Notes: generated by a model not told the origin, from the sequence alone. 32,000 nt of DNA from an uncultured Alphaproteobacteria bacterium (GCA_964406405.1 CAYORN010000003.1:146689-178688), one strand, 5' to 3'; shown: positions 3,497 through 20,901, counted from the first letter of the stretch. Numbers and translations: made by a program.

Positions 3497-3970
3497 GAAC
3501 GATACTTGATTTTAATTAACTTATGAACTGCGAGTGACGGTTTTGTGCCAGAAGTTGCGGAGGTCATGTGTGACTTCAACTGCGGCCTGTCACGTGGTGA
3601 CAACAAATGTCAGTAATCGGGGTGGGGAAGAGGATGATTTCCCACGCGACGCAACTACAGATGAGAACAGGATGCGCACATCTCTATCTGGCTAGCCGTC
3701 GCCAAGGACTACCCCAATCGATCGTAGTCCGAGACATCATGACCGCAGAAGCCTTTGCCTCATTTACTAACGCCAAGTCACGCCTTAATCCATGGCCCAA
3801 CAAGGAATTAACGCTAAGTATCCACCTCCCAAGCAAGCGACTCGCTAAATTATCAACATTTGACGCTTACCTTGATAATGTTCAGTAATTTGAGTAGCTT
3901 AGAATAGGGTTCTGGGGGCACGACTTCACCCCCGAGGATTTGGCCGCCCATTTTGTCTTGGAGCAAACGG

Positions 3971-5720: not shown

Positions 5721-5794
5721 CACAAGCGGCTCGCCGTCGAGGCAATGCGGTCCGCGATTTGATCACTGATTAGTCTTGATGGTCAACGCGGCGA

Positions 5795-8700
5795 CTATGG
5801 CCACAATTCTGCTAGGTCTCGTGGCACGACAGTTGCAAAGACATCTAAGCCATCCCCCTTCCCAACTATGAATGAAGACTCCAACGCACGATTAAGAGAT
5901 TCCCACAGCACCGTTTGTTCCGCACTCAATTTCCCCTTCGTTCGTTGCAAGATCGGCATCAGGCTCCAGCGGATATTGATGGCCGGAGCATAGAGGGGCT
6001 TGACCGCAAGTAGTGACAGCACTTGCCCGCTAAACAGATCGGCGGGCTCTCTGGCGAGAAAAGCCGTCAGAATTCTCAAGAGGAGAATGCGGCCGCTAAG
6101 CAGATCATGCGATGCCTGATTGAACTCCCAACCAGTCTTGAGCGCGGCTTTGGCCAAGTCATAATCTCCATTCATGAGTAACGCCGCACCAAGCGCTTGA
6201 TATCGGTGGGCCATTTTGTGGGAATTCAACGGAACCTCGAGTGACTGGTATCCGTTAGCTTCTTGAAACTCGTTGATGGCACGCGGATACTCGCTGGCAG
6301 AGAGCGAGTTCACCCCAATGTTACTTAAGTATAAAGCCATTCTCGAACTGTCCCGCCCGTAACACTCCTCCGCAGTCCGCCTAGCATCTTTCAGAATCTC
6401 GCGTGCAGCTACGATCTCTCCACGATCCTCGATTATCCGTGCGAGAATGATCAAGACAGTCGCCTCAATGGGGCGATTTCTTATGTCCCATCCCTTGGCG
6501 TATGAACAGGCATTCCGAATTAAAAGTTCTGCTTCCTCGTCCTCGTGTCGATTACGAAGCGCTTCGGCAAGTGTAGCAGTGTCTTGGCATACCGTCGGGT
6601 GTGATTCACCTAAGCGATTGCGGCCGGACATCACAGCGCGTCTGAACAAACTGATGGCGTCATCAAGACGGCACATATCTTGATAGACCAAACCAAGGTT
6701 GATCTGACTAAGCGCAATCTCGTCACTATCCTCAACAAAGAGCTCTTGCGCCCGTCGCAGTGCATTTTCTAAGACAGGCGCGGCGTCATCGAGACGGCAC
6801 GTTGCCCGATATAAGCAGCCCAAATTCGTCGCAGTTTCCCATTGCAACCGAGCATTGGCATCACTATTCTTACAAATACTCCGGATGGAGAGTAGATGTC
6901 GTTCTGCTGCTCCCATGTTTCCCAAATGCAGGTTGTTGACGGCGATAAGATTGTGACACGACGTCACCGGGACATTAGGTCCACTCCGATCTTCACTCAG
7001 CGCTCGCAGTGTATGAGATGCCATCTGCAAAGCACTACTGTATTGTCCTACTTGTGTGAGAGCGGAACTTGTCTTCAACGCAAGGGACTGACCGAACGGA
7101 CGATTGTGAGTTAATGAGTGCTTAGATGCAGCCACCAGCGATTCAAGTTCCCATTCTGGGAATCCAAATAGAATTGAAGTGTCACATAAGAGTGCGCGAT
7201 TTATCAAATAGGAACTCATACGATAACTTACCGATAGCGACTGCGACCGAGTCGCATCAAGAATAGTCTCTTGAACCATACGGTGCATGCGGGTCAGCCG
7301 GGGCGTGCGATGATCATCTTCGAAATCCCCGATTTGTAGCAGTCGAAGGCTCAATAGATTGTTGACTAACAGCAACCACGGATCCTCATAGCCAGGGGGA
7401 GCGTCTTGACCTAACTTAGGAAAGTCTTCAGTAACAAGTGTCCGTAACCATGGAAGCGGAATGCTGTCGGGTGGCAATAATGCGGCGTAAGACAGCGTAA
7501 GCAGCTCATCTTGCCCAAGTAGAGCAAGCGTTGGCGCCAAAGTAGCTGATATTAGTCTTTCGCCATGCCTGATGCCGGTCTTGGTTGCCCTGGCCATTCC
7601 CTCCAATCCGGGCAGCCCTTCACGTCGCAGCCGCTCAAGCAACGCGGAGCACGTGATACTTCCAGTGCGTTCGCCGAGATGAATGGCCACTACCTCGATA
7701 GCGAGGGTGAATCCTCCAAGAAGTGCAGCGATCTCAAATGCCGCTGTACGCTCGGTTTCATCCGAGAAGTGCTCGCCGGGTTGGTAGCTCTCAATGAGTC
7801 TCAAGGCGTCCGTAGGGGGCAGTTCGTCCACGCAAAGCAGCGCGTGTTGATTGGGATCAAGTCCAATGTCGTCGGCACCCAAACGTGTAGTGGCCAGTAC
7901 GCGTAACCAGTGTTTGCCGGTCAGGATATCGGATTGTGGCGGTTTGAGCAATTCAGGTGAATCTACGTTGTCGAGCATCAGCAAGACCATAGGTTCAGGT
8001 GGGTGCTTATCACCGGAATGCGTGTCAGCTCCTCGAATCGCGCGCCGTTCCAGTTCCGCTAAGATGCGTTTGGCAGATCGCAGATCGTCTTTCTTCTCAT
8101 CCTCTGTCAAAGTTACGCCCAAATCAGACTCGAGCTTACGAAGTGCGGAGAGCAGGCAGGATTCACCTGCGCAACCGATCAGCCAGCGGCCGCCGGGATA
8201 AAAGTCGGCGTAGGCGTATGCATACTGGATAGCAAGGGAAGTCTTCCCTAACCCACCCAGACCTTGGAGAGCTGTCACAATGCCGAACTTGCCCAAGCCA
8301 ACTGCTTCATGAAGACGCCTCATCTCATCTTCGCGTCCTACAAACCGGGGGTTATGTGCGGGCAAGTTGCCTTGTGCCGCCGTAATCCGACGTAATCTAG
8401 ATAGCTTGGTGTGAAGCGAGTGCTCAAGGTCTTCAAGTCTCTTGCGAACATCTAAGCGCCGGAGCGCACCAACGCCCTCACTGTACCACGGGCGAAGGTC
8501 AAAGTAATTCCGCCGTCGCACGCTCTTCATCCAAGCCGATGCGTGCTGGTCGAAGTCCGGCGCATTAAGGCCGGGAATCTCAACGAAATAGATCGGTGCA
8601 ACGCCCTGTCCCTGTGCGGCTCGTGATTGCTCATACTTGAGATACTCGACAACTTCCCATTCGCAGTAATTGCTCACAAGGTAGTTAGGAGACAGGATGA

Positions 8701-8905
8701 TTAGCAAGATGTTCGACTGACGGAGACCCTCGAGAATACGATGCCGCCAGTCGTCCATGCCGTCAATGTCTTCAATATCGAAGAAACAGCGGAGGTTCTC
8801 ACACGCAAATTCGCGGTAGTCAGCTTCGATCTGCTGCTTGAATTCTGTGATACGTCCCGTTGTGTTGTCGCGTCGCGAATAGGAAATAAAAAGGTCGTAC
8901 GCCAT
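5795..8905 (-). CDS. TIR - NB-ARC/STAND NTPase - TPR protein (bacterial TNL-like NLR)
   Basis: N-terminus YDLFISYSRRD...ILLIILSPNYLVSNYCEWEVVE is a TIR domain that keeps the conserved Glu region. FVGREDEMRRL...GLGGLGKTSLA is the P-loop (about 8240-8263). MVLLMLDNVD is Walker B. The C-terminal roughly 450 aa are TPR-like helical repeats. The track ORF starts at TTG 8932. I prefer ATG 8905, which has GAGGAG upstream. Confidence 0.9.
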   Translation of the reverse strand: MAYDLFISYSRRDNTTGRITEFKQQIEADYREFACENLRCFFDIEDIDGMDDWRHRILEGLRQSNILLIILSPNYLVSNYCEWEVVEYLKYEQSRAAQGQGVAPIYFVEIPGLNAPDFDQHASAWMKSVRRRNYFDLRPWYSEGVGALRRLDVRKRLEDLEHSLHTKLSRLRRITAAQGNLPAHNPRFVGREDEMRRLHEAVGLGKFGIVTALQGLGGLGKTSLAIQYAYAYADFYPGGRWLIGCAGESCLLSALRKLESDLGVTLTEDEKKDDLRSAKRILAELERRAIRGADTHSGDKHPPEPMVLLMLDNVDSPELLKPPQSDILTGKHWLRVLATTRLGADDIGLDPNQHALLCVDELPPTDALRLIESYQPGEHFSDETERTAAFEIAALLGGFTLAIEVVAIHLGERTGSITCSALLERLRREGLPGLEGMARATKTGIRHGERLISATLAPTLALLGQDELLTLSYAALLPPDSIPLPWLRTLVTEDFPKLGQDAPPGYEDPWLLLVNNLLSLRLLQIGDFEDDHRTPRLTRMHRMVQETILDATRSQSLSVSYRMSSYLINRALLCDTSILFGFPEWELESLVAASKHSLTHNRPFGQSLALKTSSALTQVGQYSSALQMASHTLRALSEDRSGPNVPVTSCHNLIAVNNLHLGNMGAAERHLLSIRSICKNSDANARLQWETATNLGCLYRATCRLDDAAPVLENALRRAQELFVEDSDEIALSQINLGLVYQDMCRLDDAISLFRRAVMSGRNRLGESHPTVCQDTATLAEALRNRHEDEEAELLIRNACSYAKGWDIRNRPIEATVLIILARIIEDRGEIVAAREILKDARRTAEECYGRDSSRMALYLSNIGVNSLSASEYPRAINEFQEANGYQSLEVPLNSHKMAHRYQALGAALLMNGDYDLAKAALKTGWEFNQASHDLLSGRILLLRILTAFLAREPADLFSGQVLSLLAVKPLYAPAINIRWSLMPILQRTKGKLSAEQTVLWESLNRALESSFIVGKGDGLDVFATVVPRDLAELWP

Positions 8906-9027
8906 TAAGGCAAGACTCCTCTTTGGAGACAACGCTAGCGTAGCGAAGTGAAGATCTTAAGCATCGGGAAATACCCGATGCGCGAGTCGAAGGATTATTC
9001 TGCAGTAACTAATGGCGGACAGCGCCT

Positions 9028-11667
9028 TCAAATCCCGAGCCTCTGCACTGAATAACCCGCCCGAGCAAGAATCTCAGGAATGCCCGCCACCAGATCCCGG
9101 TCGATCTGTTTGATGTTCTCGGGAAGCTCTTCCCATTCTACTAAAAACTCGTTCTGCTCTGAATTGTCCTTCGATGGCTTTCCCCGCGTAAAGCCTGTTA
9201 TGAGCTTGGCTTCCATCCATAGCGCGTGCTCTTGTCGCGCCATGGTCTCAACTTCGTTCATCGAGAACTTGTAGACCGACTGATCTCCACGGGCTGGCAT
9301 CATGACAAGACCAATGGCTGCCAGTTTCTGTGGAATGGATTGAACGTTAACGCGGTTCGACTCTTTGGCCCATTCAGGAAGCTGATTGTATGGAATCAGC
9401 AGCGGATTCGTTTTCTTTTCCTCGCTCTTTTCCTCGCCAAATATGAAACCGTCAAGGCGTTTGCTTTCACAATAAGCTTCATGGGCTGCTTCAGCCAGCT
9501 TTTCAAGGATCTCCGGTGTTAACATGATTGCTTGAACCAATGACAAAAATTCCATTCCATTGACGTGTAGATTCAATTGCGCTTCGCCGGGTAGACACGA
9601 TCGCTCGAACTGAGTCTTGCCAACAAGTTGACTCATGTCGATAATTGCTTCCATGGAGCGCGCGCCATGTTTGTACTCGCGGACGTGCAGAAAAGCGTTC
9701 AACACACCGGGATCAATATTCACAGTACGTCGCCCGCTCTTACTTGCGATGATCTGCGGTGTCAGCCGTTCAAACATAGAGCGGAGCAGAATGGCGCGGC
9801 GGGTCACGAAATACGGATCGGAAGACCCATCCATCCCGGTTGGATTCGGTCCCATGACTTGAATACAGCCCTTCAAGCGGCTGATAAAGTCCGGTCCCTT
9901 GACTTCACGGAACACATCGTGACTTGCCAAGGTCTTTCCGAATGACTCGAAGGACTCGCTGGTCCCTCCAGCAAACACGAAGATGGCCTGGCCGATCGGA
10001 TGAGTAGTCGGCCCCTGTTGAAAGGCCCCGTCCTGCATCGGAGCTAGAAAATAGCGTAGCCAACCCAATGGCTGTCCCTGAAAGGTCGTATCAAATTCAT
10101 CAAAGAACACCAGGGGAATGTATCCCAGAAGTGCTTCATCGCGGACCTGGTGGAAGGCATTGTGAAGAGCTTCTACGTCGTCAAACTGCGACAAGTTGAA
10201 TTCCAGCTTTTTGATGAGACCTGGAAAGATCGACTTGGCCATTTCGGTGACACCGAAGGACTTGCCCGATCCGGGAGCACCAAATACCGCTATCGATAGC
10301 GGCCGCTTCTGACGATCCTTACCACAATATTCCGTCATCAGTACACGGATGCTGTGATAGTTCTCGATTTCTCGACGGTCAATCGTGGTAAGATTTCCGA
10401 AACGTGCGATCGGCACATTCTTGAGGGTATCGCCTATGCCTTTCAGCACTATATTCCGTGCAATTGAACTTAATGCGCCGCGATTGACGTCATCAAGAAT
10501 AGTCCAGTATTGGTTCGGTGAGGAATTGCCGGCATCCTGCGAACGAATCATGAAGTGAGCCGGATCCGGAACTTTCACGGATGCAAACTCTTCCACGGAC
10601 TTCCCGATTTCGGCGGCGACTGCAGCGAGTGGGAACGCTAACTGGACATCAGAACTACCCGTCGTTCGATCTCCATACCCTTCCAGGTGCAGTCTGCGCA
10701 TCGCGGCGATACCGCTCTGAATTGCAGCTGATAGGTTCGGGCTGGCTGGCGATGTCATCAATTGATACACGATGCTTGCGGTCATGCACGTTTTGTACCC
10801 CACCATGCCGCCTGGGTATGTGCTCGACCACATGCCTTCCATGGTTTGCCCGTCGAAAAAGATCCGCACCTGTCTATTAGTCAGTAACGCGGCGCCGGCC
10901 GTTCCTATGGAGACGACAATATGAGCGCACTGGGCTAGCGAATTTATGCAGGGATTGTAAACGAGTTCCCAGGCGAGGTCTTGCACTGTCCGTTCCCACG
11001 ACAAGCCGCGACTGATTTGGACTTCTGTCCCTCGCAGATCGTCGATGTTCATGACGACAATTAGGCGATCTGCCCAATGCTGCTGCAAGAACTCCCACAA
11101 CTGTCCTTGCGCAACCGGGCGCGACATTTTCACGACAATCCAGGGGGATTTGCGTGCCGTATCTCGCTTCAAGTGTGACCAGAGTTCAGGATGGTCGCGG
11201 AAACCCAGATCGGCATCATCAAACACGATAATCTCTGCTTTGACTATGTCGGTCAGCGAGCGTTTGGCCAGTTCGACCCAGCCACCGTCACTTCGGTCCA
11301 ACCCGGCAAACTCAGATACCCGCCAGGCGAGCTGTTCTTTGCTTCCCTTGATGTCGTACGGGAACTGCTTCCACAGCGCATAGGAATGATGACACCGGCG
11401 GTCGGCAGGATTGACAAGAAGATCGGCATCAGCGAATTTTCGGATCTCGTACTTACTTGCCCGATTATCCTGGACCTGTTCGGCGAGTTCTTCGATCAAA
11501 TTCCCCAACAAAGCCGCACCACCGCGTTGCCGGCAGGCGCGCGTGCCCGCTTCCGCCGTCCAAGAGTGGCTGACGCTTTCGTTTCTCTGAAGCCGCGCAA
11601 TGTTCCAGTCAATCGTCAGGTCGCCAGAGACCACGACCACTTTCTTTGGTTCATCTATCGTATGCAA
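9028..11667 (-). CDS. Three-part protein: PfkB/ribokinase-like N-terminal domain (tentative) - classical AAA+ ATPase - two RyR domains
   Basis: TTG start at 11667 with AAGGAG (11674-11679) 6 nt upstream. N-terminal KKVVVVSGDLTIDW, RQRGGAALLGNLIEELA and HIVVSIGTAGAALL resemble PfkB-fold motifs, but the GAGD catalytic motif is absent. VFGAPGSGKS is Walker A (about 10258-10281). LVFFDEFD is Walker B. LAPMQDG and IFVFAGGTS are AAA-like. The C-terminus has two repeats of the RyR-domain pattern (AEAAHEAYCESKRLDGFIFGEEK...NPLLIPYNQLPEWAKESNR and ARQEHALWMEAKLITGFTRGK...FLVEWEELPENIKQIDRDLV). Confidence 0.85.
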   Translation of the reverse strand: MHTIDEPKKVVVVSGDLTIDWNIARLQRNESVSHSWTAEAGTRACRQRGGAALLGNLIEELAEQVQDNRASKYEIRKFADADLLVNPADRRCHHSYALWKQFPYDIKGSKEQLAWRVSEFAGLDRSDGGWVELAKRSLTDIVKAEIIVFDDADLGFRDHPELWSHLKRDTARKSPWIVVKMSRPVAQGQLWEFLQQHWADRLIVVMNIDDLRGTEVQISRGLSWERTVQDLAWELVYNPCINSLAQCAHIVVSIGTAGAALLTNRQVRIFFDGQTMEGMWSSTYPGGMVGYKTCMTASIVYQLMTSPASPNLSAAIQSGIAAMRRLHLEGYGDRTTGSSDVQLAFPLAAVAAEIGKSVEEFASVKVPDPAHFMIRSQDAGNSSPNQYWTILDDVNRGALSSIARNIVLKGIGDTLKNVPIARFGNLTTIDRREIENYHSIRVLMTEYCGKDRQKRPLSIAVFGAPGSGKSFGVTEMAKSIFPGLIKKLEFNLSQFDDVEALHNAFHQVRDEALLGYIPLVFFDEFDTTFQGQPLGWLRYFLAPMQDGAFQQGPTTHPIGQAIFVFAGGTSESFESFGKTLASHDVFREVKGPDFISRLKGCIQVMGPNPTGMDGSSDPYFVTRRAILLRSMFERLTPQIIASKSGRRTVNIDPGVLNAFLHVREYKHGARSMEAIIDMSQLVGKTQFERSCLPGEAQLNLHVNGMEFLSLVQAIMLTPEILEKLAEAAHEAYCESKRLDGFIFGEEKSEEKKTNPLLIPYNQLPEWAKESNRVNVQSIPQKLAAIGLVMMPARGDQSVYKFSMNEVETMARQEHALWMEAKLITGFTRGKPSKDNSEQNEFLVEWEELPENIKQIDRDLVAGIPEILARAGYSVQRLGI

Positions 11668-11796
11668 TTACTACTCCTTTCACGGGTGGGATTGATCAAG
11701 GTCAGGAATTAGTATTGGTCACGTTGGCGAATCCAAGCCCTCATCGCACCCTCGCGACAGATACGAACGATAAGGATCTTGCTTTTCAATGTTGTA

Positions 11797-14700
11797 TCAA
11801 GGTGTCTCGTTTCTCGATTTCACATGGTCGAGAATCTTCTTTGTCTCTTCGGCCAAACCGATCAACCCATGGTGTATCGCCATTTCATATGCAGACTCTG
11901 CGAGCTTCTGCGCCTCGCCGCCCTGGTTCCGCTCCATTAGTATCTCCGCCTGATTTCCCAAGCTAAACGTCAAACCCTCTGGATTCCCAAGTTCTTGGCA
12001 CAATCGCTCCTGTTCCTTTAGTAAAGTCATAGCGCCATCCAGATCGCCACGGGCATACAGGATCAACGCTTGATTTCCTAGGCAGCTCTGCAAACCGTCC
12101 TTGTTCGCCAAATCCCGGCAGAGCTGCTCCTCTTCCTCGTGCAGCGCCATCGCCCCGCTTAGATCGCCCCGGGTTCGAAGGATCTCTGACTGGTTGCCAA
12201 GGCTTCGCGACAGGCTGAGCTTGTCGCCGAGTTCCCGGCAGAGTCGCTCCTGGTCCTGGAGCAAAGCCATCGCGCTATCCAGTTCGCCACGCGCATATTG
12301 GATCAGCCCTTGATTGCCTAAGCATGCTTGCAGGCTATCGCGTTTGCCCAATTCTCGAAAGATTTTTTCATTCTCCCTGCATAACACCATCGCATCGTCC
12401 AGATTCCCCTGTCGCATGAGGATCAGCGCTTGATTTTCCAGACATGCCGAAAGTTCATACTTGTTGCCCAGTTCTCGGCATAGGTGCTCTGTCTCCTTCA
12501 ATAGTGCCACAGCAGCGTCCAAATCGTTCCACATCCAGAGGATCACCGCTTGATTTTTCAGGACCGCTAACAGGATATCCTTGTCGCCTGATTCCCTGCC
12601 GAAGCGCTCTTGCTCTCTAAGCGACGCCATTGCACCTTCCAGATCACCATGGATCAGAAGGATTATCGCTTGATTGCCTAGGATTCGCGACAGGCTGAGA
12701 TTATCGCCCGCTTCCCGACAGAGACACTCACTCTCCTTGTACAGGGTCATTGCTCCGTCCAGATCGCCCCGAGTTTGAAGGATCATCGCTTGATTGTTTA
12801 GACTTGCCTGAAGACTGTTCTTGTTGCCCACTTCCCGGCAGAGGCGTTCACTTTCCTTGTATAGTGCAATCGCCCTGTCAAGATCGTCTTGAGTCTGAAA
12901 GATCGCCGCTAGATTGACCAGGCATGCCGAAAGGTTAACTATATCATCGGTGCTCCGGAAATGCTCCACCAAATCGGCACGAAGTCTCAGCGCTTCGTCA
13001 ACATACCCTGCGTCTGCGAGAAGACTCGACACTGGAAGGAGATATGAAAAATGGGTGTCGGCCACGAGATCACCGTAGGCATTGGCCATTCGTAGAGTGG
13101 AATTCTCCTCAATTCGCGTCCAGTACGCCCTTACCTCCCACTGATTGTCTTTCCAAGCCACACTGAAGAACTCCAACTTTGCCAGCAGATCGTAAAGCCG
13201 ACTCCATTCCTTCGCTTCTGCAAGTTGCCATGGCAATTCTTCCACCTTGTGGTCGGTAAGTTCGCGATTCATGAAGTAGTCGGCAATCTTCAGGTGGATG
13301 GAACGTTCATGCACAGGAGTGGGCAGGTACGCGGCGCGCACGGCCTCGCGTAGGAAATCATGGAAAAATCCGAGCAAGCCGGATCTCGAGACCAGCGAAT
13401 CACTCGCTGCAAGATAAAGCGGTGACCAAGCCGCTCGTGGCAAAGGCTGCCCGTTGGATCCTAACATGTCCAGCAATTCAGACTCCGAAAGACCACGCCG
13501 CGCCGCCCAGAGAAGTGACATGACGTCGCCTACGAGATTGGTATCTCCTTCGTAGTCCTCTTCCCAGCGGGCCAAGATTTTTCCGTAAAGTTCCGGAACT
13601 GTGTTAGCCGCAAGGTAATACCCGATGCGTTCATCGAGCCGCTCATGCATTCCAAATACACGCAGCTCTTCGAGCAGTGCACGCAAATAGAGCGGATTGG
13701 CGGTTTGCTTCGCGTCGGCAATGCGCGTTGCTCGTTCAGGGCTAAGGGCCTTTGTGTATTGTGCCAGATACTTTAGAATGAATTCCTGGCGCTCGTCGGC
13801 ATTAAGAGGTTCGACCTTCATTACCGGCCAGTCGCGCTTCATTAAATCATCTAACGACCGACCCGGCAATGTGGATACCACAAGCCTGATGTTTGCCGGA
13901 ATCACCGGCGGCAACCAAACCAAGTCAGGTGCTTGATCGCGATCTTCCAATTGGTTCAAAGCATCCAGAATCAGAACCACCTTTCCCCGCGCTGCCGTCA
14001 TGTGCAGCCAGTTGGCAAACGCAGAGCGTAACTCGTCAGGCTTGTCGGGGATCTCCTGCGTGATTCCAAACCGCCGCTTGAACTCGCCCATGATCCGCCG
14101 CAACATGGCTGACCAGTCGGTGCTACTCGATGATGCGCCGACAAAGTGCAGGATTATCAGATCGTCGGGATGTTGTTTGCGATGATGTTCAGCCCAGTTC
14201 GCCAGCAACGCTGATTTGCCTGATCCGGATTCGCCCAGCACAATGAGCGACTGACCATCTCCGTCAGCATGTTCATCGAGGCGCTGAAAATACTTGTCTC
14301 CGCCAATGTATACGCGGCGGCGGCTATCCGCAAAGGCTTCATGCTCGGCCGCTTCACGATCCAGCGGATCCGTGATCGGGGCGTCCGGATACAGGTTATC
14401 AATGAGCGCCTGCATGTCCCGCAGCACCAACTGACCAAAGGCCTTCGGATCCGGGTAGTTCTCTGCGACCGAAAAGCACTTTTTGCGAATGCGTTGCTTC
14501 AGTGCGGCCAGCTTTTCGTGCCGCTCTGCGGAGCGCTGTTCTGCTTCATCGCGTCCCCATCGCGTGATCTCCTCTTCGGTCGGCGCGTCCCGAAACATCG
14601 CTTGCCTGTCCGCCGGCAGCATATCTATGTACCTCGCATCACGAAAATAGAAAAAGGCGTGTTCCGCCATTTCCGGGTTGAGTAGCACTCCATGCAGAAT

Positions 14701-15081
14701 CTCAAGTTCGGTGACCGAGTGATTGTGGTGTTCCGCCAACCATTTTTCCTGCTCAATCAATTCTGCCGAAATCTTCTCGGGTATCCACCCGTATCGTTCC
14801 CCCAGGACACCGATGAAATACGGCCGGCAACGCTTGATCTCTTCCAGGCAAATGGGCAACACCTTGCCTTCGGCCTTCTGCTCGTCGGTCACACCCCAGC
14901 GCAGATCTACTTCACCCCAGGTTACCTGCCGTTGCTCGCAAAGCTTTCGCAGTTCAGGGAATACAAATTTGACTAATTCATCGCGCTCCGCGTACATATC
15001 CGCAAACGTGGACGACACAAAGACGCGGACGACGCGTTCGGTACTACCTGTCTGGGATCTTGGATGTTGTATGGCTGTCAT
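11797..15081 (-). CDS. DUF4062-like N-terminal domain - STAND P-loop NTPase - TPR array
   Basis: VRVFVSSTFADMYAERDEL...PYFIGVLGERYGWIP matches the DUF4062 pattern. LIVLGESGSGKSALLANW is the P-loop (about 14212-14235). VVLILDALNQLED is Walker B. The C-terminus carries nine very regular 40-aa TPR-like units. Confidence 0.9.
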   Translation of the reverse strand: MTAIQHPRSQTGSTERVVRVFVSSTFADMYAERDELVKFVFPELRKLCEQRQVTWGEVDLRWGVTDEQKAEGKVLPICLEEIKRCRPYFIGVLGERYGWIPEKISAELIEQEKWLAEHHNHSVTELEILHGVLLNPEMAEHAFFYFRDARYIDMLPADRQAMFRDAPTEEEITRWGRDEAEQRSAERHEKLAALKQRIRKKCFSVAENYPDPKAFGQLVLRDMQALIDNLYPDAPITDPLDREAAEHEAFADSRRRVYIGGDKYFQRLDEHADGDGQSLIVLGESGSGKSALLANWAEHHRKQHPDDLIILHFVGASSSSTDWSAMLRRIMGEFKRRFGITQEIPDKPDELRSAFANWLHMTAARGKVVLILDALNQLEDRDQAPDLVWLPPVIPANIRLVVSTLPGRSLDDLMKRDWPVMKVEPLNADERQEFILKYLAQYTKALSPERATRIADAKQTANPLYLRALLEELRVFGMHERLDERIGYYLAANTVPELYGKILARWEEDYEGDTNLVGDVMSLLWAARRGLSESELLDMLGSNGQPLPRAAWSPLYLAASDSLVSRSGLLGFFHDFLREAVRAAYLPTPVHERSIHLKIADYFMNRELTDHKVEELPWQLAEAKEWSRLYDLLAKLEFFSVAWKDNQWEVRAYWTRIEENSTLRMANAYGDLVADTHFSYLLPVSSLLADAGYVDEALRLRADLVEHFRSTDDIVNLSACLVNLAAIFQTQDDLDRAIALYKESERLCREVGNKNSLQASLNNQAMILQTRGDLDGAMTLYKESECLCREAGDNLSLSRILGNQAIILLIHGDLEGAMASLREQERFGRESGDKDILLAVLKNQAVILWMWNDLDAAVALLKETEHLCRELGNKYELSACLENQALILMRQGNLDDAMVLCRENEKIFRELGKRDSLQACLGNQGLIQYARGELDSAMALLQDQERLCRELGDKLSLSRSLGNQSEILRTRGDLSGAMALHEEEEQLCRDLANKDGLQSCLGNQALILYARGDLDGAMTLLKEQERLCQELGNPEGLTFSLGNQAEILMERNQGGEAQKLAESAYEMAIHHGLIGLAEETKKILDHVKSRNETP
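11884..12963 (-). repeat. Nine tandem 120-nt (40-aa) coding repeats in the TPR array of the STAND protein
   Basis: Units start at 12963, 12843, 12723 ... 12003 on the minus strand. The consensus is roughly LCRELG[DN]K.SL...LGNQA.IL..RGDLDGAM.L.KE.ER. Confidence 0.8.
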
Positions 15082-15094
15082 GAGTTGCGAAAGC

Positions 15095-16789
15095 TCACGC
15101 CGGCTGTTTCACGTTTAAGAACCTTACCAGCCCGCGCCAGTCCTGGGATTCGGTCAGCACGATATTGTCTACCCGGCGCACGATGCTTTCGAACTCCTCA
15201 ACCGATGCCGTTTCGACGGTAGAAGCGATCGCCTGCAATTGGTCCGACATGTCTTCACTTCGGGCAGCCAACCGTTCATACTCCCGATGGCTGCGGAACC
15301 AAATAATGGCTGCACCCAGCGAAGGCAGGATTAGGGCGGAGAGAACGGCGAACCTCCCCAAGTAATCAACACTAGGCCACAAGATGAAGCTGAAGATATG
15401 CGCCAAAGCAGCGAGCATCGTCGCATAGAAGAGGGTGCTGCCGATAACCTCAAACCGACGATCGAGAATTGTGCGCTCGTCGGCACGCTTGAGATGCCAT
15501 CGTCGTTGGTCGCGCACCCAGACATTGGCAATGAACGCGCGCTTGGCGTCGAGTTCAGTGCCCAAAGCTGGTGGCGGGGTGTTCAATTTGCGGATGATAC
15601 AATTGAATACGCAGGCCGTCCAATCGCACCTCGCTTCAAAACCTGTTAATGCTGTGTCCTGTTTCAGCGGCGACGGTGAAACCCCTACGGCCAGAAGAAA
15701 GGATGCAGCACGAAGCCGCTCGGCGAGAAAGCGCAGCAATATCCATTGGCTATGATGGCCTTTCCTGTGAGATCGTGCTACCAACAGTAAGATTCCAACC
15801 AGGGCCATTGCCTCGAGCGTGAAGAACGCAATGTCCCAACTCGCAACCATAGCACCGAGGGCAACAAACACGATGGCAGCCATCGCGAGCACATAAACTA
15901 AGATGCCGGTCAGTCGATATGAACGTTGGTTTCGTTTGGCGATGGCTGAGGCGATAGCGTAGGCAGGTACGAGCTTTTGTTCCACCTCTTGAATCGATGC
16001 CGCGTTCAGGCCACCCGCTTTGGCCGGATTAAACGGGTTTGTCCACTCAAGTGACCCAGCATGTTCTGGACTGCCCTGATTGTACGACGTCACAAACGTT
16101 TTCATGGCAACATGGCCCGTGCGGTCGTAGCGGCGAAGCCGGTAACGGCGGATCGGGTAGTCACCTCTACTTACGTCAATGAGGTATGTAGGTACGCCAA
16201 GGTCATGTGCAAGATCCAGGATATCTCGTGTGCCGCCGAGTTGACCTGCCCGATGGGGATCGTACAGGGCGATCAGGAAATCGCAATGCCGAAGCACGTA
16301 CTCCCCTGCTTCCCGATACGCGGCATGCCGTAAGTCTCGTTGCTCCTGAGGAGTCTTGGCATCTGCAGCAATGAGACGACCCCGCAAGTAGATCGTAGAT
16401 GTGGGGTCTTTGGGCAGAAAAGCATCGAACTCTCGGCGCGACTCCTCGACAGCATTTAGACGTAGTGGTGCCCCGCGTGCATCCAGCCCAAAGGTGTTTT
16501 CGTAATCCGCTCTCGTCAAGGGAATAACAGCCATTAAGCTTGCATCAGTGTTCCTCAGTACTTCATGCGCAACAATCCGATCGGCACCATCGGCAAGACA
16601 CGAAACCACCTCCCATTGCAAGTGAACTGTCTGTTCAGGATCAATGAGCTTTTGAATGTCCTTGAGTACCGCTCGCACCTGATCGACGAGCTCTTTGTTC
16701 GCGACCAAATCTCGATGCCCTGTGACGCCGACGCGAACTCGAAAGTGAAAACGGCAATCGGGACTGTCATTCTCTTGTGCATCAGACAT
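15095..16789 (-). CDS. SLOG (LOG-like Rossmannoid) domain fused to a SLATT-like 4-TM module (predicted ligand-gated membrane effector)
   Basis: VGVTGHRDL...SCLADGADRIVAHEVL...AYREAGEYVLRHCDFLIALYD...LGGTRDILDLAHDLGVPTYLI is a SLOG/YpsA-like pattern (about 16160-16747). Two hydrophobic hairpins follow (LTGILVYVLAMAAIVFVALGAMV / IAFFTLEAMALVGILLLVA and IGSTLFYATMLAALAHIFSFIL / FAVLSALILPSLGAAIIWF, about 15290-15922). Each hairpin is followed by an amphipathic helix. The track ORF starts at GTG 16834. I prefer ATG 16789, which has AGGAG 8 nt upstream. The stop lies 13 nt before the STAND gene start. Confidence 0.8.
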   Translation of the reverse strand: MSDAQENDSPDCRFHFRVRVGVTGHRDLVANKELVDQVRAVLKDIQKLIDPEQTVHLQWEVVSCLADGADRIVAHEVLRNTDASLMAVIPLTRADYENTFGLDARGAPLRLNAVEESRREFDAFLPKDPTSTIYLRGRLIAADAKTPQEQRDLRHAAYREAGEYVLRHCDFLIALYDPHRAGQLGGTRDILDLAHDLGVPTYLIDVSRGDYPIRRYRLRRYDRTGHVAMKTFVTSYNQGSPEHAGSLEWTNPFNPAKAGGLNAASIQEVEQKLVPAYAIASAIAKRNQRSYRLTGILVYVLAMAAIVFVALGAMVASWDIAFFTLEAMALVGILLLVARSHRKGHHSQWILLRFLAERLRAASFLLAVGVSPSPLKQDTALTGFEARCDWTACVFNCIIRKLNTPPPALGTELDAKRAFIANVWVRDQRRWHLKRADERTILDRRFEVIGSTLFYATMLAALAHIFSFILWPSVDYLGRFAVLSALILPSLGAAIIWFRSHREYERLAARSEDMSDQLQAIASTVETASVEEFESIVRRVDNIVLTESQDWRGLVRFLNVKQPA

Positions 16790-17102
16790 TTGGATCGCTC
16801 CTGTAATTGATGCGTCTCTCTCGAGAACAGTCACCTGTTCGTAACTTGTGAATCTTGATGGTGTCAGTGCTTCATTGTCAATTCTGGGGAAATGCGCTTG
16901 TTCGACATCTTACGACTCCGGTACCTTCGGACCTACCTGACGCAAGATCCGTTCGTCCCACTTGTGATTTACTGGCCATCCCGTAAAACGGATCAATCTG
17001 GTGACTAACCAGTAGCTCTACCTGACAGGCAGTAGTGAGGCGCACCTGTCGTCCTCGCTTCGAAAGTGTACGCAAAGACGTGTAATCTCTCGACGCGGAT
17101 AC

Positions 17103-18176
17103 TTACTTCCCAAAATGCGGCAGAATGCTATCATTGAAATGGAGCTTGGCCTTGAGCTCCGGCGGAGGTGCCACTCTTTCGGATGAAGGAAGGGGAAAGG
17201 GATCAATGTAATCAATCCCCCGTAACTTGAGTGCGAGGCGCCACTCTCTGTCAACCCACTTCGATCGACTAGCTGCTTCTGACCAGAACAGATAGAAAAC
17301 GTCCTGCCGAGGTATCATTTTGAAGAGGACTTCTTCGTAGTGGTCCCCCGATCGCAGACTGAGGACGTCCAAGAACACATTGACGCCCGCCTTCTCCAAT
17401 CCGTGGACCCTTGCCAACACTGCTTCTTGGTCTTCATGTGCATAGGAAGCAAATGCCGAGTGATACCTTTTGTCCCTCACTCGCAACTGTCGCGTATAAA
17501 TAGTCGGTCGGGATCTGATCTTAAGTGCGAAATCAACGCGCGCAATTTCAAGTCCGTTCACATAGAATTGCGCAACTCCGTGTCGGCTTCCACGCTTACA
17601 GTATTTAGGTACGGTGAGCGCAAATGTCGTCTTGCCGCTCTTCCCGTCCCAGACCAAAGGCTTGGCAGGTGGCTCGACGCTCACGCCCTCTATGCGCACA
17701 CTAACATAGAGCACAGCGCCGCGCAGAACACGGGCAGGGCCCTGTGTTATGATTAGCGGCTGCCCACGCACTTCATTGTGTACCATCTCCATCACCTGCG
17801 CACGATATTTCCGAAGGTAGGCCCAGATACTCAGCACGTGCACACCACCCGGCATCAGCACGGAAGGTGTAATTACAGCGAGATGAACGTCGTCAGTAAG
17901 CCGTCCCATACTCGTTTCCGGATGTGAAGCATTATCTCCAACATCGAGTTGGTCGTATGGCTGAGACTCGGTTTTCAGGCCGCCGGCTGTCGAAGTTGCT
18001 TCCGTTGTCGGTTTTGGAGTGGAACGTGAGCGTTTAGCGGGTTTCTCCGCCGATGGTCGAGATTCACGGTCCTTATCGCCATTCTCTTTAGACTTGACCA
18101 TTCCGAGTCCGTTAGCGGGAAACAAGAAGCCGATCAAACGGAAAAGCAGCGATAAGAGTTTCCATAAAGTCCCCAT
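17103..18176 (-). CDS. Membrane-anchored TIR-domain protein (N-terminal hydrophobic anchor, K/S/T/P linker, beta-rich middle domain, C-terminal TIR)
   Basis: AGGAG lies 7 nt upstream of ATG 18176. The N-terminus is LWKLLSLLFRLIGFLFPANGLG followed by a highly basic linker. The C-terminus YHSAFASYAHEDQ...VFLDVLSLRSGD...DVFYLFWSEAASRSKWVDREWRLAL is a TIR_2-like pattern that keeps the conserved Glu. Confidence 0.85.
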   Translation of the reverse strand: MGTLWKLLSLLFRLIGFLFPANGLGMVKSKENGDKDRESRPSAEKPAKRSRSTPKPTTEATSTAGGLKTESQPYDQLDVGDNASHPETSMGRLTDDVHLAVITPSVLMPGGVHVLSIWAYLRKYRAQVMEMVHNEVRGQPLIITQGPARVLRGAVLYVSVRIEGVSVEPPAKPLVWDGKSGKTTFALTVPKYCKRGSRHGVAQFYVNGLEIARVDFALKIRSRPTIYTRQLRVRDKRYHSAFASYAHEDQEAVLARVHGLEKAGVNVFLDVLSLRSGDHYEEVLFKMIPRQDVFYLFWSEAASRSKWVDREWRLALKLRGIDYIDPFPLPSSERVAPPPELKAKLHFNDSILPHFGK

Positions 18177-18659: not shown

Positions 18660-19755
18660 TCACACGTCATCATCGCTGTGAATTTTGTCGCGAATAATGG
18701 CAATGATTGTCTCGAGGTGTCGACGCAGTTCCTCCAAATCATCTGTGTACCTGAATATGCTTTCTGTCCGGAAGTCGAACGGCACAGGCGGCATTGTTCC
18801 ATCATCGGCAGTCCGTCGGAGAAGAATCACAGGTTTGTTTTCAGCATGAGCCATTCCCAGTTCATACATGACGTTAGGGCGATCGCCTGTGGTGTCGGCA
18901 ATTGCTGAAAAAACAGTGCCGTAATCCATCGCGGATTGCTCCCACGACATTGCCTGTTGGTACAACTCGGTCGGTTCGCACCGGGTGCAGTCCGTGGGCG
19001 GCAAGAGCTGGGACGATCGCGTTGTCATATACCGGATCACTGGCTTCTTGAAACGGCATAATTATGAAGCAACTTCTCGTGAAACCTCGCAACAAGCAGC
19101 TACAGACGCGTTTTGCCAGCGCACGAATTTCTGTGTCGCACAGATCCGCGAGCCGAAGCTGTTCGAAGTCGGTGGCTTCAGTATCGGTGATTTCAAACCA
19201 ACTGCAGATTTCGGATCGAACATCCCTCCACGCTTCAGCCGATGAACCACCGCCAAATGGCAAGGGTAGGATAGGGCGCTCTATCGCAAGTGCGACATCC
19301 AGCACGGACCGTGTGCCATGCTCGCCTTCAACCGAGATCACAACATCCGCGGAATGAACCATGCTGAAGCGGCGTGCCTGGGGGGTACGGTGTGAAAGCA
19401 CTTGGATACGACCTTCGTGAAAGCGAACGAGCTTGCTGAAGTCCTTTTCCCGGTCAGGCAGAACAGTCTCAACGCGTTCCTCGGCGGGTATTCCGCTCGA
19501 ACGCAGACCTTCCAGAACTCCGTCAATGATCGTCCAGTCCGCCGTTGGGTGATTGGGCGAGTCAAGCCTCGCTTTCAAGCCACCAGTAACAACAATGAGA
19601 CCGTCTTCAGCGGCCAAGAGTTTTCCGAGTTCCTTCCAGAGAAGGGCGGCATTCACTGACAGGCGACTGTCACCGCTAACAAACAGACGACGGGGATGGA
19701 TTATGGCCTTTATTATGGCGATGATCTTAGTCTGGTGAATGTCGACATTCGCACG
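18660..19755 (-). pseudogene. Decayed SLOG/LOG-like + nucleoside 2-deoxyribosyltransferase-like (TIR-related) fusion gene
   Basis: Track ORFs 18874..19656 and 18660..19040 are two frames of one gene. Frame A has LIVVTGG...RRFSMVHSADVVISVEGEHGTRSVLDVALAIERPILPLPFGGG (LOG/SLOG) and then CFIIMPFQEASDPVYDNAIVPALAAHGLHPVRTD. Frame B continues with VFSAIADTTGDRPNVMYELGMAHAENKPVILL. Removing one base from the A6 run at 18908-18913 joins the two frames (..GLRHCFSAIADTTG..). The frame is also open upstream to 19755 and encodes RRLFVSGDSRLS, the expected first strand, but that stretch has no ATG, GTG or TTG. Confidence 0.7.
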
Positions 19756-19793
19756 TTACCGCAAGTCACAGTCCGGCATTTGCGGGTGTCGCC

Positions 19794-20899: not shown

Positions 20900-20901
20900 G
20901 A

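Follow-up and report, generated by a model that had tools for sequence, protein, structure and literature searches.

Within a 32,000-nucleotide window of DNA from an uncultured Alphaproteobacteria bacterium, we identified an 879-residue protein (termed Q) that combines a ribokinase/PfkB-like fold, an AAA+ ATPase module and a tandem RyR domain, and whose genomic setting points, with what we regard as evenly balanced likelihood, to a receptor ATPase of the host, working within a Thoeris-like cassette of several genes that would signal via NAD-derived nucleotides. The Q gene (9028..11667, minus strand, with the stop codon at 9028–9030) was assigned through ORF calling, Pfam, a public match, AF2 and Foldseek. 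It begins with a TTG codon, and a Shine–Dalgarno-like AAAGGAG, read directly off the sequence, is located 6 nt 5′ of this start (11674..11680, minus strand). The length of the resulting N-terminus agrees with that of homologues, and public data hold a protein identical to Q (P0001). The three-part architecture had been proposed in an earlier, sequence-only reading of this DNA and is borne out here, with RyR and AAA recovered by profile searches and the PfkB-like portion by predicted structure only. The strong ribosome-binding site attributed to the gene in that reading also stands, and the intergenic gaps, given there as about 125 nt on both sides, are refined to 129 nt between Q and the upstream NACHT gene and, 3′ of Q, to 95 nt (longest ORF) or 122 nt (start chosen by the public gene caller). 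A promoter/terminator scan of positions 5500–21500 yielded sites no commoner than in shuffled sequence, and the gaps on either side of Q contained none; the scan thus neither supports nor opposes co-transcription, and promoter and terminator signals leave the operon undefined. The contig carrying Q is cellular and up to 636 kb long.

With respect to the N-terminal domain (aa 9–345; 10633..11643, minus strand), the assignment comes from Foldseek searches of the PDB together with conservation. The AF2 model of Q (pLDDT 84.6, pTM 0.78; mostly >80 in the N-domain) displays the alpha/beta core and beta lid of a ribokinase fold, a relationship seen by structure only. Matches in the PDB include LacC (3q1y), HldA (4e8w), PfkB (3hic) and ribokinase (6ilr/5byc), along with 2nwh and 2ajr (E 2e-8 to 7e-7, prob 1.0, TM (target) 0.51–0.60). 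At the level of sequence, aa 1–447 gave no Pfam match at E ≤ 10 (PF00294 included), no NCBIfam match and none in PDB sequence searches (phmmer and profile hmmsearch), and hhalign comparison with an RbsK/PfkB/FruK profile was not significant (prob 1.9%). Because the PfkB relationship is invisible in sequence, active-site motifs can be placed only provisionally. The earlier expectation that profile searches would recover both terminal domains held for RyR; for the N-terminal domain it failed, its fold being recovered by Foldseek.

In terms of individual residues, the N-domain keeps two features of the RbsK, PfkB, LacC and HldA family in the expected order, an Asp in the first strand (D20) and a GG pair (G49–G50), and these positions, together with Q47, are conserved among homologues. 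A mapping made by eye from the order of secondary structures, with one non-significant hhalign anchor, would place G290–Y291 at the G-D of the GAGD motif (G254–D255 in E. coli RbsK), such that the catalytic Asp is probably replaced by Tyr. Across 56 homologues G290 is invariant (56/56) and position 291 is Tyr in 52/56 and Asp in 0/56, in agreement with the initial remark that the catalytic GAGD motif appears to be missing. Thus, although the overall fold, including the beta-sheet lid, is that of the ribokinase/PfkB family, Q differs from it in the lack of a family profile match, in the Tyr at the putative catalytic site and in an extra linker of ~100 aa leading to the AAA+ module. This linker (aa 346–430; 10378..10632, minus strand) is the least conserved part of Q (mean identity 35%), and its pLDDT is partly low.

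The AAA+ ATPase module with its lid (aa 431–703; 9559..10377, minus strand; Pfam, conservation and Foldseek) contains the motifs that had been picked out previously, namely GAPGSGKS (463–470), FFDEFD (521–526) and LAPMQDG (541–547). Walker A K469, Walker B D523/E524, R597 and R670 are all invariant in the 56 homologues; judging from their positions in the sequence, R597 and R670 would correspond to the arginine finger and sensor 2, respectively. PF00004 is marginal on Q, scoring 19.1 bits on the whole protein and 21.7 bits on the isolated region versus a cutoff of 21.2, and its alignment covers only profile positions 3–71 of 131. The AF2 model and Foldseek are consistent with an AAA+ fold, the matches being FtsH-, Vps4-, Cdc48- and RFC-like viral AAA proteins.

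The C-terminal tandem RyR (Repeat12-like) domain (aa 704–879; 9031..9558, minus strand) was assigned by Pfam, PDB sequence matches, Foldseek and residue mapping. PF02026 aligns to Q in two stretches (E 2.5e-21, 76.2 bits versus a cutoff of 27.4) and scores 82.9 bits on the isolated C-terminus, and the PDB sequence matches of this region are RyR1–3 Repeat12 and a Bacteroides RyR protein. Foldseek retrieved human RyR3 Repeat12 and the Bt-hRyR chimera (E 1e-9 to 5e-9; 164–198 aligned columns; TM (target) 0.54–0.59), and the two repeats of Q are predicted to pack as one Repeat12-like globular domain. Animal Repeat12 (human RyR3 848–1055; PDB 9l9b, 6uhe) has a tandem fold like that of Q (Foldseek E 1e-9) with 22–25% identity over ~195 aligned columns, but in animals it regulates a Ca2+ channel of 5000 aa from a peripheral position, whereas the domain in Q is the C-terminal module of a soluble ATPase.

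For phage RyR, the initial statement that bacterial and phage RyR domains lack an established function has been overtaken by two 2026 preprints, which show binding or cleavage of 2′/3′cADPR; neither of them named a host protein using the domain. In light of this activity, the parallel between TIR, cADPR and RyR, at first offered as speculation, may now be treated as a concrete lead. RyDEP (mycobacteriophage DyoEdafos) and RyR Tad (Pectobacterium phage CB1 gp68) have PF02026 and a Repeat12-like domain in common with Q, and their pocket, H-x-x-W ... (H/N)-P ... (K)-D-R, appears from the alignment to be kept, mostly in repeat 2. Specifically, the pocket positions of repeat 2 (H814/W817/N839/D856–R857) align gap-free with H75/W78/H100/D117 of RyDEP and H129/W132/H154/K170/D171 of RyR Tad, residues required in those proteins to bind or cleave cADPR isomers (two 2026 preprints). 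Of these residues, H814 and D856 are each found in 56/56 homologues, W817 and R857 in 54/56, N or H at position 839 in 49/56 (H in 20/56) and K at position 855 in 32/56. The corresponding positions of repeat 1 are H729/Y732/N754/N771. Two differences nonetheless argue against a receptor role: both repeats of Q have Asn (N754 and N839) in place of the His by which RyDEP and RyR Tad coordinate the phosphates of the ligand, as is also the case in repeat 2 of animal RyR, and N771 replaces the acidic residue in repeat 1.

The phage proteins also differ from Q in their organization. They are homodimeric viral counter-defence proteins of ~120–180 aa, whereas Q is a host-encoded multidomain protein in which the tandem repeat is intramolecular, as in animal RyR, and fused to AAA+ and ribokinase-fold modules. 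Phage and viral searches found no full-length viral homologue of Q, and when 50,697 phage records were searched by tblastn with the RyR tandem, the 18 matches were all short and RyR-only. A prophage or phage origin for Q was rejected on this basis.

The conserved pocket could also serve a different purpose, in which Q is a signal-turnover or recycling enzyme acting as a host off-switch or NAD+ salvage step, a role that we consider rather unlikely. Repeat 2 would open 2′/3′cADPR to ADPR, the ribokinase fold would bind or modify the ribose-phosphate product, and the AAA+ module would couple turnover to the SLOG effector described below, setting an activation threshold. ADPR, a derivative of ribose 5-phosphate, has a free anomeric OH, and among known structures the N-domain is matched best by sugar-phosphate kinases, including HldA, which phosphorylates an anomeric OH. 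Further in favor of turnover, the catalytic dyad of RyDEP is kept in repeat 2 as the invariant H814 and D856, RyDEP works with ADPR-processing enzymes to rebuild NAD+ (2026 preprint), and high conservation is commoner in enzymes than in arms-race effectors. However, phage sponge homologues share the His/Asp pair with RyDEP and yet do not cleave (2026 preprint), so the dyad is no predictor of catalysis. The Tyr at the putative kinase catalytic position is at odds with an enzyme of this type, and the existence of family members without any RyR domain implies that RyR chemistry is not the core activity of the family.

The family to which Q belongs is both large and strongly constrained: searches found more than 2000 relatives, with 49–59% identity among the 120 best matches listed, and the family comprises 1728 clusters at 50% identity. 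Relatives occur in at least 549 of 185,579 species genomes, spanning more than 10 phyla and archaea; the best species-representative match is 59% identical to Q, and identity among the 80 kept loci is 42–59%. For an immune effector, conservation of this order between phyla and between domains is unusually strong, and it must be counted against a receptor role. Three variants are observed, consisting of PfkB-AAA only, PfkB-AAA with RyR (the majority) and PfkB-AAA with both RyR and SLOG. We considered whether forms of ~700–750 aa are truncations and rejected this, as a 736-aa PfkB-AAA-only gene is complete within its contig. The PfkB-AAA-RyR-SLOG proteins are natural fusions that make up six independent protein clusters, and gene-calling read-through was likewise rejected as the origin of the 1050–1104-aa forms, one of which is encoded by a single ORF lying wholly within its contig. 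Given that forms without RyR and forms with SLOG both exist, PfkB-AAA is the core of the family and RyR and SLOG behave like add-on modules.

The same high conservation would suit a housekeeping regulator of metabolism or energy state, in which an adenylate-sensing AAA+ protein with a sugar-kinase-like domain binds ATP or ADP through RyR. Animal RyR Repeat12 also binds ATP, ADP and AMP-PCP (PDB structures and a preprint), which means that the ligand of Q could be an ordinary adenine nucleotide rather than an immune signal, and four Chlorobiaceae loci lie in housekeeping surroundings (NTP transferase, PTPS, SecA), as do several other loci. We nonetheless regard a housekeeping role as very unlikely. 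The patchy distribution of the family over phyla and archaea indicates horizontal transfer rather than a core function, and the cassette genes in the window lie in a stretch of lower GC content (~0.50–0.56 versus 0.58–0.62 in the flanks). The association with TIR, DUF4062, SLOG-SLATT and RCK-RyR genes is moreover strong and dependent on gene rank.

As anticipated from the sequence, Q lies between two genes for STAND-type NTPases (Pfam), both co-directional with it and, like the other genes described here, on the minus strand. The downstream gene (5795..8932; Pfam) encodes a TIR–STAND NTPase (AAA_16)–TPR protein, a 50%-identical ortholog of which is found near a Q homologue in another locus (L055), and is a candidate sensor and NAD+-processing component. 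The upstream gene (11797..15081; Pfam) encodes a DUF4062–NACHT–TPR protein. DUF4062 has been described as a TIR-like NADase that converts NAD+ to ADPR and nicotinamide (bioRxiv 10.64898/2026.05.01.722283); hhalign of DUF4062 against a TIR profile was not significant, and the TIR-like assignment is that of the 2026 preprint. Only 13 nt separate the start of the NACHT gene from the end of a gene for a YpsA-like SLOG domain (aa ~30–235) fused to a SLATT/DUF4231 transmembrane domain (15095..16834; domain searches, AF2 and Foldseek). Beyond it are genes for a 357-aa protein with a C-terminal TIR (17103..18176; weak NCBIfam match to Thoeris type III ThcB4), a 260-aa SLOG cluster-4 (LDcluster4) protein (18874..19656) and a 333-aa protein with an N-terminal TIR (19898..20899) of the same subfamily as TIR genes adjoining Q homologues elsewhere. 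Pfam and follow-up annotation thus give three TIR-domain genes in the window, which supports the TIR-rich setting noted at the outset.

Across loci, TIR genes occupy 20/155 positions adjacent to Q homologues as compared with 4/383 at rank ≥6 (OR 14, Fisher p 2e-8). TIR or DUF4062 genes are present in 51/82 loci, with DUF4062 STAND genes in 28/82 and TM-RCK-RyR proteins in 15 of 82. The sequence-only reading had allowed that homologues might prove to be scattered in housekeeping contexts; instead, a TIR, DUF4062, SLOG partner or second RyR protein accompanies them in 63/82 loci. The remaining 19/82 loci have none of these, and of the 51 loci that have 3 kb or more of sequence on each side, 10 are without any partner gene, an observation that, along with the Chlorobiaceae loci, weighs against a receptor role. 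A recurring co-directional cassette runs Q > SLOG(+/-TM) > TM-RCK(-RyR) > TIR-x > DUF4062-STAND, and the window carries these parts in permuted order.

The SLOG(-SLATT) protein, represented in the window by the gene at 15095–16834, is the most conserved partner of the Q family. A YpsA-like SLOG protein, with or without SLATT, is the next downstream gene of the Q homologue in 26/76 loci, and in most loci with SLOG in this position the gap is −3 to 22 nt. The SLOG domain of the window protein has no Pfam or PDB sequence match; its AF2 model (pLDDT 83.8) matched YpsA (2nx2; E 2.4e-6, prob 1.0, TM (target) 0.67) and then LOG proteins (prob 0.92–0.94) in Foldseek. The YpsA-like clade includes cADPR-variant sensors (PMC9503650). 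The SLOG-SLATT gene falls outside the coordinates given in the sequence-only reading. That reading had viewed Q as a possible partner of either STAND gene, but what is conserved around Q homologues is not the STAND gene in itself; the recurring partners are YpsA-like SLOG(-SLATT) proteins and TIR or TIR-like domains on variable scaffolds.

These neighbourhoods also bear on whether Q might be a self-contained single-gene defence protein, with TIR, STAND and SLOG neighbours as independent co-residents of an island. Defence genes are known to cluster in the absence of functional cooperation, Q has its own ribosome-binding site and gaps of ~95–129 nt on both sides, and partner content and order vary by locus, to the point that some loci are partnerless. 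We judge this quite unlikely, however, since SLOG lies directly 3′ in about a third of the loci, with overlapping or nearly abutting stop and start, and is fused in six clusters. TIR enrichment also drops steeply with gene rank, which is unexpected from loose island co-residence, and the same set of parts recurs across phyla.

We also compared the Q cassette with Thoeris type I (ThsB plus the SIR2-SLOG protein ThsA) and type VII (TIR plus the SLATT effector ThsH, acting through cADPR). As in Thoeris, TIR genes adjoin proteins that pair a small-molecule sensor domain with an output domain, and both the YpsA-like SLOG and the SLATT membrane domain are found in the Q cassette. In the window, the TIR gene 95 nt 3′ of Q couples TIR genomically to a candidate effector. 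Unlike any described Thoeris type, Q contains RyR, an AAA+ ATPase and a ribokinase fold, and TIR heads in Q cassettes are carried on TPR, WD40 or STAND scaffolds rather than small ThsB-type proteins. Q matches no described Thoeris effector family (ThsA, C, D, E ... L). In the available portion of the 29-type Thoeris survey (Yirmiya et al. 2025), RyR, PF02026 and ribokinase are absent from the main text and four supplements, and AAA and kinase from the main text. Neither Q, its SLOG partner nor the RCK-RyR protein has a PADLOC match, and PHROGs gave no system-level match to any of the three, the only families matched being RyR-containing ones of unknown function. No Q-type protein was found described in the literature or defence catalogues searched. 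Within these sources, the original impression that the architecture could not be placed in a known system is confirmed.

DUF4062 provides a further point of comparison, as it begins the gene upstream of Q and genes in 28/82 loci and is also the TIR-like NADase domain of Swarozyc, a portal-activated NAD+-depleting system, and of other defence proteins (bioRxiv 10.64898/2026.05.01.722283). In contrast to Swarozyc, the DUF4062 heads are here carried on NACHT/STAND-TPR/WD40 proteins and adjoin RyR and SLOG proteins, an arrangement that suggests a downstream reader of the reaction product. Against a receptor role stands the fact that TIR heads on STAND/repeat proteins are usually seen as NAD+-depleting effectors rather than signal makers, and such TIRs are set aside on that ground in the available text of Yirmiya et al.

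Taken together with the conserved pocket, the genomic data allow a working model for Q as a receptor, in which we infer the identity of the ligand, the direction of signalling and the output. Sensors with a TIR or DUF4062 head, such as the TIR-STAND-TPR and DUF4062-NACHT-TPR proteins of the window, would recognize the invader and turn NAD+ into ADP-ribose-type molecules. The RyR tandem of Q would take up one of these molecules in the pocket where phage RyR proteins accommodate 2′/3′cADPR, and binding would change how the AAA+ module is assembled or its ATPase state. This in turn may control the ribokinase-fold domain, in which the sugar-binding signature is kept and the catalytic Asp is, by the provisional mapping, missing. 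The output could be the N-domain itself or the physically coupled YpsA-like SLOG protein, which in many cases carries a fused SLATT membrane domain or precedes a channel-like TM-RCK-RyR protein and could thereby deliver a killing or arrest step.

More broadly, the Q family constitutes a widespread host-side RyR protein whose genes lie in physical linkage with those for TIR, TIR-like NADase, SLOG and SLATT proteins. In animals, what cADPR does at ryanodine receptors has been a matter of long debate. We offer, as a tentative proposal that is possible rather than probable, that RyR is a native prokaryotic receptor class for NAD-derived immune nucleotides, that phage RyR sponges and glycosidases are captured copies, and that cADPR regulation of animal RyR descended from it. 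NLR-like TIR/DUF4062 sensors would then signal by small molecule, instead of merely burning NAD+, to RyR/SLOG executors (the PfkB-AAA machine, SLATT pore and RCK channel), much as plant TIR-NLRs signal to helpers. If Q is indeed such a receptor, it would add to the 29 Thoeris types now catalogued a further receptor/effector class for TIR signalling, and would give an evolutionary source for both viral RyR counter-defence and the nucleotide-binding Repeat12 of animal ryanodine receptors. It would likewise put to the test whether STAND/NLR-type TIR and DUF4062 proteins can be signal generators, not only NAD+ depleters, and assign a function to an orphan ribokinase-fold/AAA+ machine of at least 549 species. 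In the neighbourhoods of Q homologues, RyR is also fused to TM-RCK, RelA_SpoT and WD40 proteins, and shuffling of this kind over different scaffolds is typical of a sensor domain.

The gene for Q, the 879-aa protein encoded at 9028-11667 (-), is the longest ORF at its site and starts with TTG, with AAAGGAG located 6 bases upstream. The N-terminal length of Q agrees with that of its homologues, and an identical protein is already contained in public data. The three-part architecture claimed in the sequence-only reading, consisting of a PfkB-like domain, an AAA+ module and tandem RyR domains, was confirmed by a combination of searches. Specifically, two RyR repeats were detected in Pfam (PF02026, E 2.5e-21), and PDB sequence searches matched this region to Repeat12 of RyR1-3 and to a Bacteroides RyR protein. 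The AAA region gave only a marginal Pfam match, and the first ~445 aa gave no sequence-level match in Pfam, NCBIfam or PDB searches. An AlphaFold2 model of Q built on a 56-sequence alignment was confident (pLDDT 84.6, pTM 0.78), and when compared with the PDB using Foldseek its N-terminus matched ribokinase/PfkB-family proteins (LacC, HldA, PfkB and ribokinase; E 2e-8 to 7e-7, prob 1.0, TM about 0.5-0.6) and its C-terminus matched human RyR3 Repeat12 (E 1e-9). A Foldseek search against viral models paired the AAA+ module with FtsH-, Vps4-, Cdc48- and RFC-like proteins and also returned phage RyR proteins, with no full-length viral relative of Q found.

With respect to catalytic residues, the GAPGSGKS, FFDEFD and LAPMQDG motifs reported earlier were all found, and their key residues do not vary among 56 aligned homologues. 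K469 (Walker A), D523/E524 (Walker B), R597 (arginine-finger position) and R670 (sensor-2 position) are all invariant, and Q is therefore presumably an active ATPase. Mean identity to the window Q is 65% for the AAA+ module, about 50% for the PfkB-like and RyR parts, and lowest (35%) for the linker. Little or no variation occurs across the same homologues at three sites of the ribokinase-fold domain, namely D20 (the Asp of the first strand), Q47 and the GG pair G49-G50. The site assigned to the GAGD motif, by an inferred mapping based on the order of secondary-structure elements and a single short hhalign segment that was not significant, carries G290 in 56/56 sequences followed by Y291 in 52/56, and never Asp. 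Under this mapping, the missing catalytic Asp fits the earlier proposal of a kinase-like but non-kinase N-domain.

In terms of RyR function, the earlier view of bacterial and phage RyR domains as lacking any established role is out of date, as 2026 preprints assign cADPR-isomer cleavage or binding to phage members. RyDEP, a mycobacteriophage protein with a PF02026 domain, is a glycosidase that opens 2'cADPR and 3'cADPR to ADPR via H75 and D117, with the adenine stacked by W78 and the phosphates held by H100, and further phage homologues of RyDEP are nanomolar sponges (May 2026 preprint PMC13232231). RyR Tad (gp68 of Pectobacterium phage CB1) sequesters 1''-3' gcADPR, a function that requires H129/W132, K147/H154 and K170/D171 (June 2026 preprint 10.64898/2026.06.04.730250). 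The spacing of these sites (H-x-x-W, +22 His, +17 Asp) is the same in RyDEP, RyR Tad, a Bacteroides/human chimera and both Q repeats. In the 56-sequence alignment, the His of H-x-x-W is fully conserved in repeat 1 (H729, 56/56) and repeat 2 (H814, 56/56), and the aromatic position is occupied by Y732 (F/Y in 54/56) and W817 (54/56), respectively. At the phosphate-His position the window Q has Asn in both repeats, namely N754 (H in 35/56) and N839 (N in 29/56, H in 20/56). The acidic residue of the D-R pair is replaced by N771 in repeat 1 (56/56), preceded by S770, and is present in repeat 2 as D856-R857 (56/56 and 54/56), preceded by I855 (K in 32/56). The predicted RyR nucleotide pocket is thus conserved in the Q family, most completely in repeat 2.

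Retention of the RyDEP His/Asp dyad in repeat 2, along with the resemblance of the N-domain to sugar-phosphate kinases, would fit the main rival to a signalling role, in which Q degrades or recycles a signal. However, the sponge homologues possess the dyad without catalysis (PMC13232231), the kinase Asp is missing from Q according to the inferred mapping, and variants of the family exist that lack RyR altogether. We consider such a turnover role rather unlikely, and prefer to view Q as a ligand-gated AAA+ component of a signalling cassette.

The Q family itself is large. A whole-protein search with Q found more than 2000 proteins; the 120 top-ranking matches have 49-59% identity over 82-100% of the query, and nearly all of them cover it end to end. 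A HMMER search with the N-terminal 445 aa against 1.84 billion cluster representatives yielded 1728 clusters (465 at E<=1e-30), and the best 150 of these displayed three architectures. The majority were Q-like (about 850-950 aa). About a fifth, or 24/111 of the proteins of at least 680 aa, were a RyR-less form of ~700-750 aa, of which P0268 is a complete gene within its contig. Six clusters (P0246, P0271, P0277, P0314, P0328 and P0345) had 1050-1104 aa and an extra C-terminal domain. Because architectures without RyR exist, PfkB-AAA is the invariant core of the family and RyR an add-on module. A scan of one genome per species revealed a Q relative in at least 549 species, from which the 80 best-scoring loci, as opposed to a random sample, were retained. 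The Q relatives in these 80 loci are 42-59% identical, derive nearly all from MAGs, and span Chloroflexota, Acidobacteriota, Planctomycetota, Actinomycetota, Aminicenantes, Chlorobi, Deltaproteobacteria, Gemmatimonadota and CPR bacteria, as well as archaea (Methanomicrobia and other Euryarchaeota).

Gene neighbourhoods were compared in 82 non-redundant loci, comprising the window, loci of other searches and the 80 loci of the species scan. ORFs were called, purpose-built TIR, RyR, DUF4062 and SLOG HMMs were run, and all neighbours were clustered. The largest single-copy neighbour cluster, present in 36 loci, is a protein of ~190 aa that occurs on its own or joined to a SLATT/DUF4231 transmembrane domain. 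Its gene occupies the first downstream position in 26/76 loci, and where downstream of the Q homologue it lies mostly on the same strand with a gap of -3 to 22 nt. This partner contains GVTGHR, S-x-LA-x-GADR, WDG and GGT motifs and had no match in Pfam or PDB sequence searches. An AlphaFold2 model of the window copy (residues 1-260 of the SLATT protein encoded at 15095-16834 (-); 56 sequences, pLDDT 83.8, pTM 0.80) matched B. subtilis YpsA (2nx2; E 2.4e-6, prob 1.0, TM 0.67) and then LOG proteins (prob 0.92-0.94) in Foldseek, and on the basis of this model the partner is assigned as a predicted YpsA-like SLOG domain. Some members of the YpsA-like clade sense cADPR variants (PMC9503650), and signalling in type I Thoeris passes through a SLOG domain (Yirmiya et al. 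2025).

In the six longer Q-family clusters, the extra C-terminal domain was identified as the SLOG domain of the partner (E 1e-41 to 1e-87), and in one case the whole fusion is encoded by one complete ORF inside its contig. As Rosetta-stone evidence, these natural fusions indicate that Q and the SLOG protein probably act together. The fusions and the abutting SLOG gene are hard to square with Q being a self-contained single-gene system, which we regard as quite improbable, and are among the observations behind our preferred cassette reading.

With respect to other neighbours, partner-gene frequencies are lower bounds because the HMMs were purpose-built and the ORF caller was crude, such that the 131-aa TIR_2 gene of locus L004 is absent from the TIR list. 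On this footing, TIR genes were found in 32/82 loci, and N-terminal DUF4062 on long STAND/WD40/TPR proteins in 28/82. Using the distal part of the same 82 loci as background, rather than whole genomes, TIR genes occupied 20/155 directly adjacent positions vs 4/383 positions at rank >=6 (odds ratio 14, Fisher p 2e-8). These TIRs belong nearly all to one closely related subfamily, and the TIR is nearly always N-terminal, on TPR, WD40, STAND or short unknown scaffolds. DUF4062 is a TIR-like NADase that yields ADPR and nicotinamide (May 2026, 10.64898/2026.05.01.722283). A TM-TrkA_N(RCK)-RyR protein of ~600 aa was present in 15 loci (e.g., L034:7672-9504). A co-directional cassette, Q > SLOG(+/-TM) > TM-RCK(-RyR) > TIR-x (one or two) > DUF4062-STAND, recurs in loci such as L050, L041, L087, L012, L029, L049, L052, L008, L010 and L018.

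Overall, at least one of TIR, DUF4062, the SLOG partner or a second RyR protein was present in 63/82 loci, so that Q homologues are not scattered across housekeeping contexts. Of the 51 loci flanked by 3 kb or more on each side, 41 carried at least one partner gene and 10 carried none; four of these ten are Chlorobiaceae loci flanked by housekeeping genes. A role for Q as a housekeeping adenylate sensor would not easily account for the neighbourhood statistics or for a family distribution that is patchy and crosses domains, and strikes us as very improbable.

Taken together, the architecture, the intact ATPase residues, the RyR pocket, the rank-dependent TIR linkage, the frequent DUF4062 and the SLOG coupling and fusion form the observed basis for viewing Q as a ligand-gated AAA+ component of a TIR/TIR-like NADase signalling cassette, a model to which we give an even chance with its ligand and output steps included. 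The functional statements on Q are computational throughout. Upon infection, the TIR and DUF4062 heads would make an ADPR-type molecule, which the Q RyR domains would bind; binding would then alter AAA+ assembly or activity, and the output would come from the altered ribokinase-fold domain, from the SLOG(-SLATT) and RCK partners, or from both.

RyR and SLOG appear as swappable C-terminal modules on the PfkB-AAA core and on other scaffolds (RCK channel-like, RelA_SpoT, WD40). The TM-RCK-RyR family, usually two genes downstream of the Q homologue, has N-terminal TM helices and a C-terminal RyR domain, and looks like a putative ion-channel-type effector gated by RyR; a RyR-less RCK version of 260 aa is found at L029:13177-13959. 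RyR tandems near Q homologues also occur fused to RelA_SpoT (835 aa, L004:3267-5774 (-)), at the C-terminus of a WD40 protein (906 aa, L012:110-2830 (+)) and alone (264 aa, L048:16946-17740 (-)). The stretch between the RyR fusion and the Q homologue of L004 holds NUDIX, inositol-monophosphatase-family and small TIR genes. A RelA_SpoT-TPR protein of ~680 aa adjoins Q homologues at L013:12704-14770, L006:19886-21916 and three further loci and matches the PADLOC candidate PDC-S33 (E 5e-18), which hints that such islands may contain a second nucleotide branch of the (p)ppNpp type.

In comparison with known systems, Q resembles a Thoeris effector in combining a sensor domain with an output domain and in its adjoining TIR genes, but matches none of the described effector families. 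Neither Q nor the SLOG partner nor the TM-RCK-RyR protein matched anything in PADLOC. The main text of a survey of 29 Thoeris types (Yirmiya et al. 2025) makes no use of the terms RyR, AAA or kinase, and RyR, PF02026, ryanodine, pfkB and ribokinase do not occur in four of its supplements. Two Aravind-group surveys (including PMC9503650) do not mention RyR, and full-text literature searches for PF02026, or for the RyR domain with defence, returned only the 2026 phage papers. The sensor domain of Q is the one present in the phage proteins RyDEP and RyR Tad, from which Q is set apart as a host-encoded, tandem, multidomain protein; Q therefore falls within TIR/NAD-derived nucleotide signalling immunity and is not categorically new.

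Within the window, seven genes lie on the minus strand from 20899 to 5795. Starting from the 20899 end, 17103-20899 (-) encodes a TIR-x protein (333 aa), a SLOG cluster-4 protein (260 aa) and an x-TIR protein (357 aa) with a weak NCBIfam match to Thoeris type III ThcB4 (4e-6). These are followed by YpsA-SLOG-SLATT (579 aa, 15095-16834 (-)), DUF4062-NACHT-TPR (1094 aa, 11797-15081 (-)), which starts 13 nt after the SLATT gene ends, Q, and TIR-STAND-TPR (TIR-AAA_16-TPR; 1045 aa, 5795-8932 (-)). Genes 3-7 are parts of the conserved cassette in permuted order. An Acidobacteriota ortholog of the TIR-STAND-TPR protein (L055:15579-18665 (-), 50% identity over 876 aa) lies 6.4 kb from a Q homologue, which suggests that the two genes travel together across phyla. 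The first three genes resemble the multi-TIR plus SLOG layout of type III Thoeris, and may represent a second system. From about 3 to 28 kb, GC is about 0.47-0.56 with one 1-kb bin at 0.59, lower than in the flanks (0.58-0.62) and therefore consistent with an acquired island. A scan of 5500-21500 for consensus promoters and terminators revealed nothing above chance.

The higher-GC flank at 1-2770 encodes FAD/NAD-binding, 4Fe-4S/MvhD (FlpD) and heterodisulfide-reductase-like Fe-S proteins. Across 21176-29397 lie genes for a response regulator and a sigma-54 activator (21-25 kb), TRASH/YHS and DUF4136 proteins, and a dCache-HAMP sensor histidine kinase, the last in the higher-GC flank. The flanking genes suggest an anaerobic host. 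Four small plus-strand ORFs of 114-149 aa (3953-4402, 4497-4841, 4861-5223 and 5352-5720) converge on the TIR-STAND gene; they had no Pfam match and were not found in the other loci. The two at 4497-4841 (+) and 4861-5223 (+) have a basic C-terminal tail in common (PRRSRIKAFL..GLK.LFR; 67% identity over 27 aa, E 9e-8).
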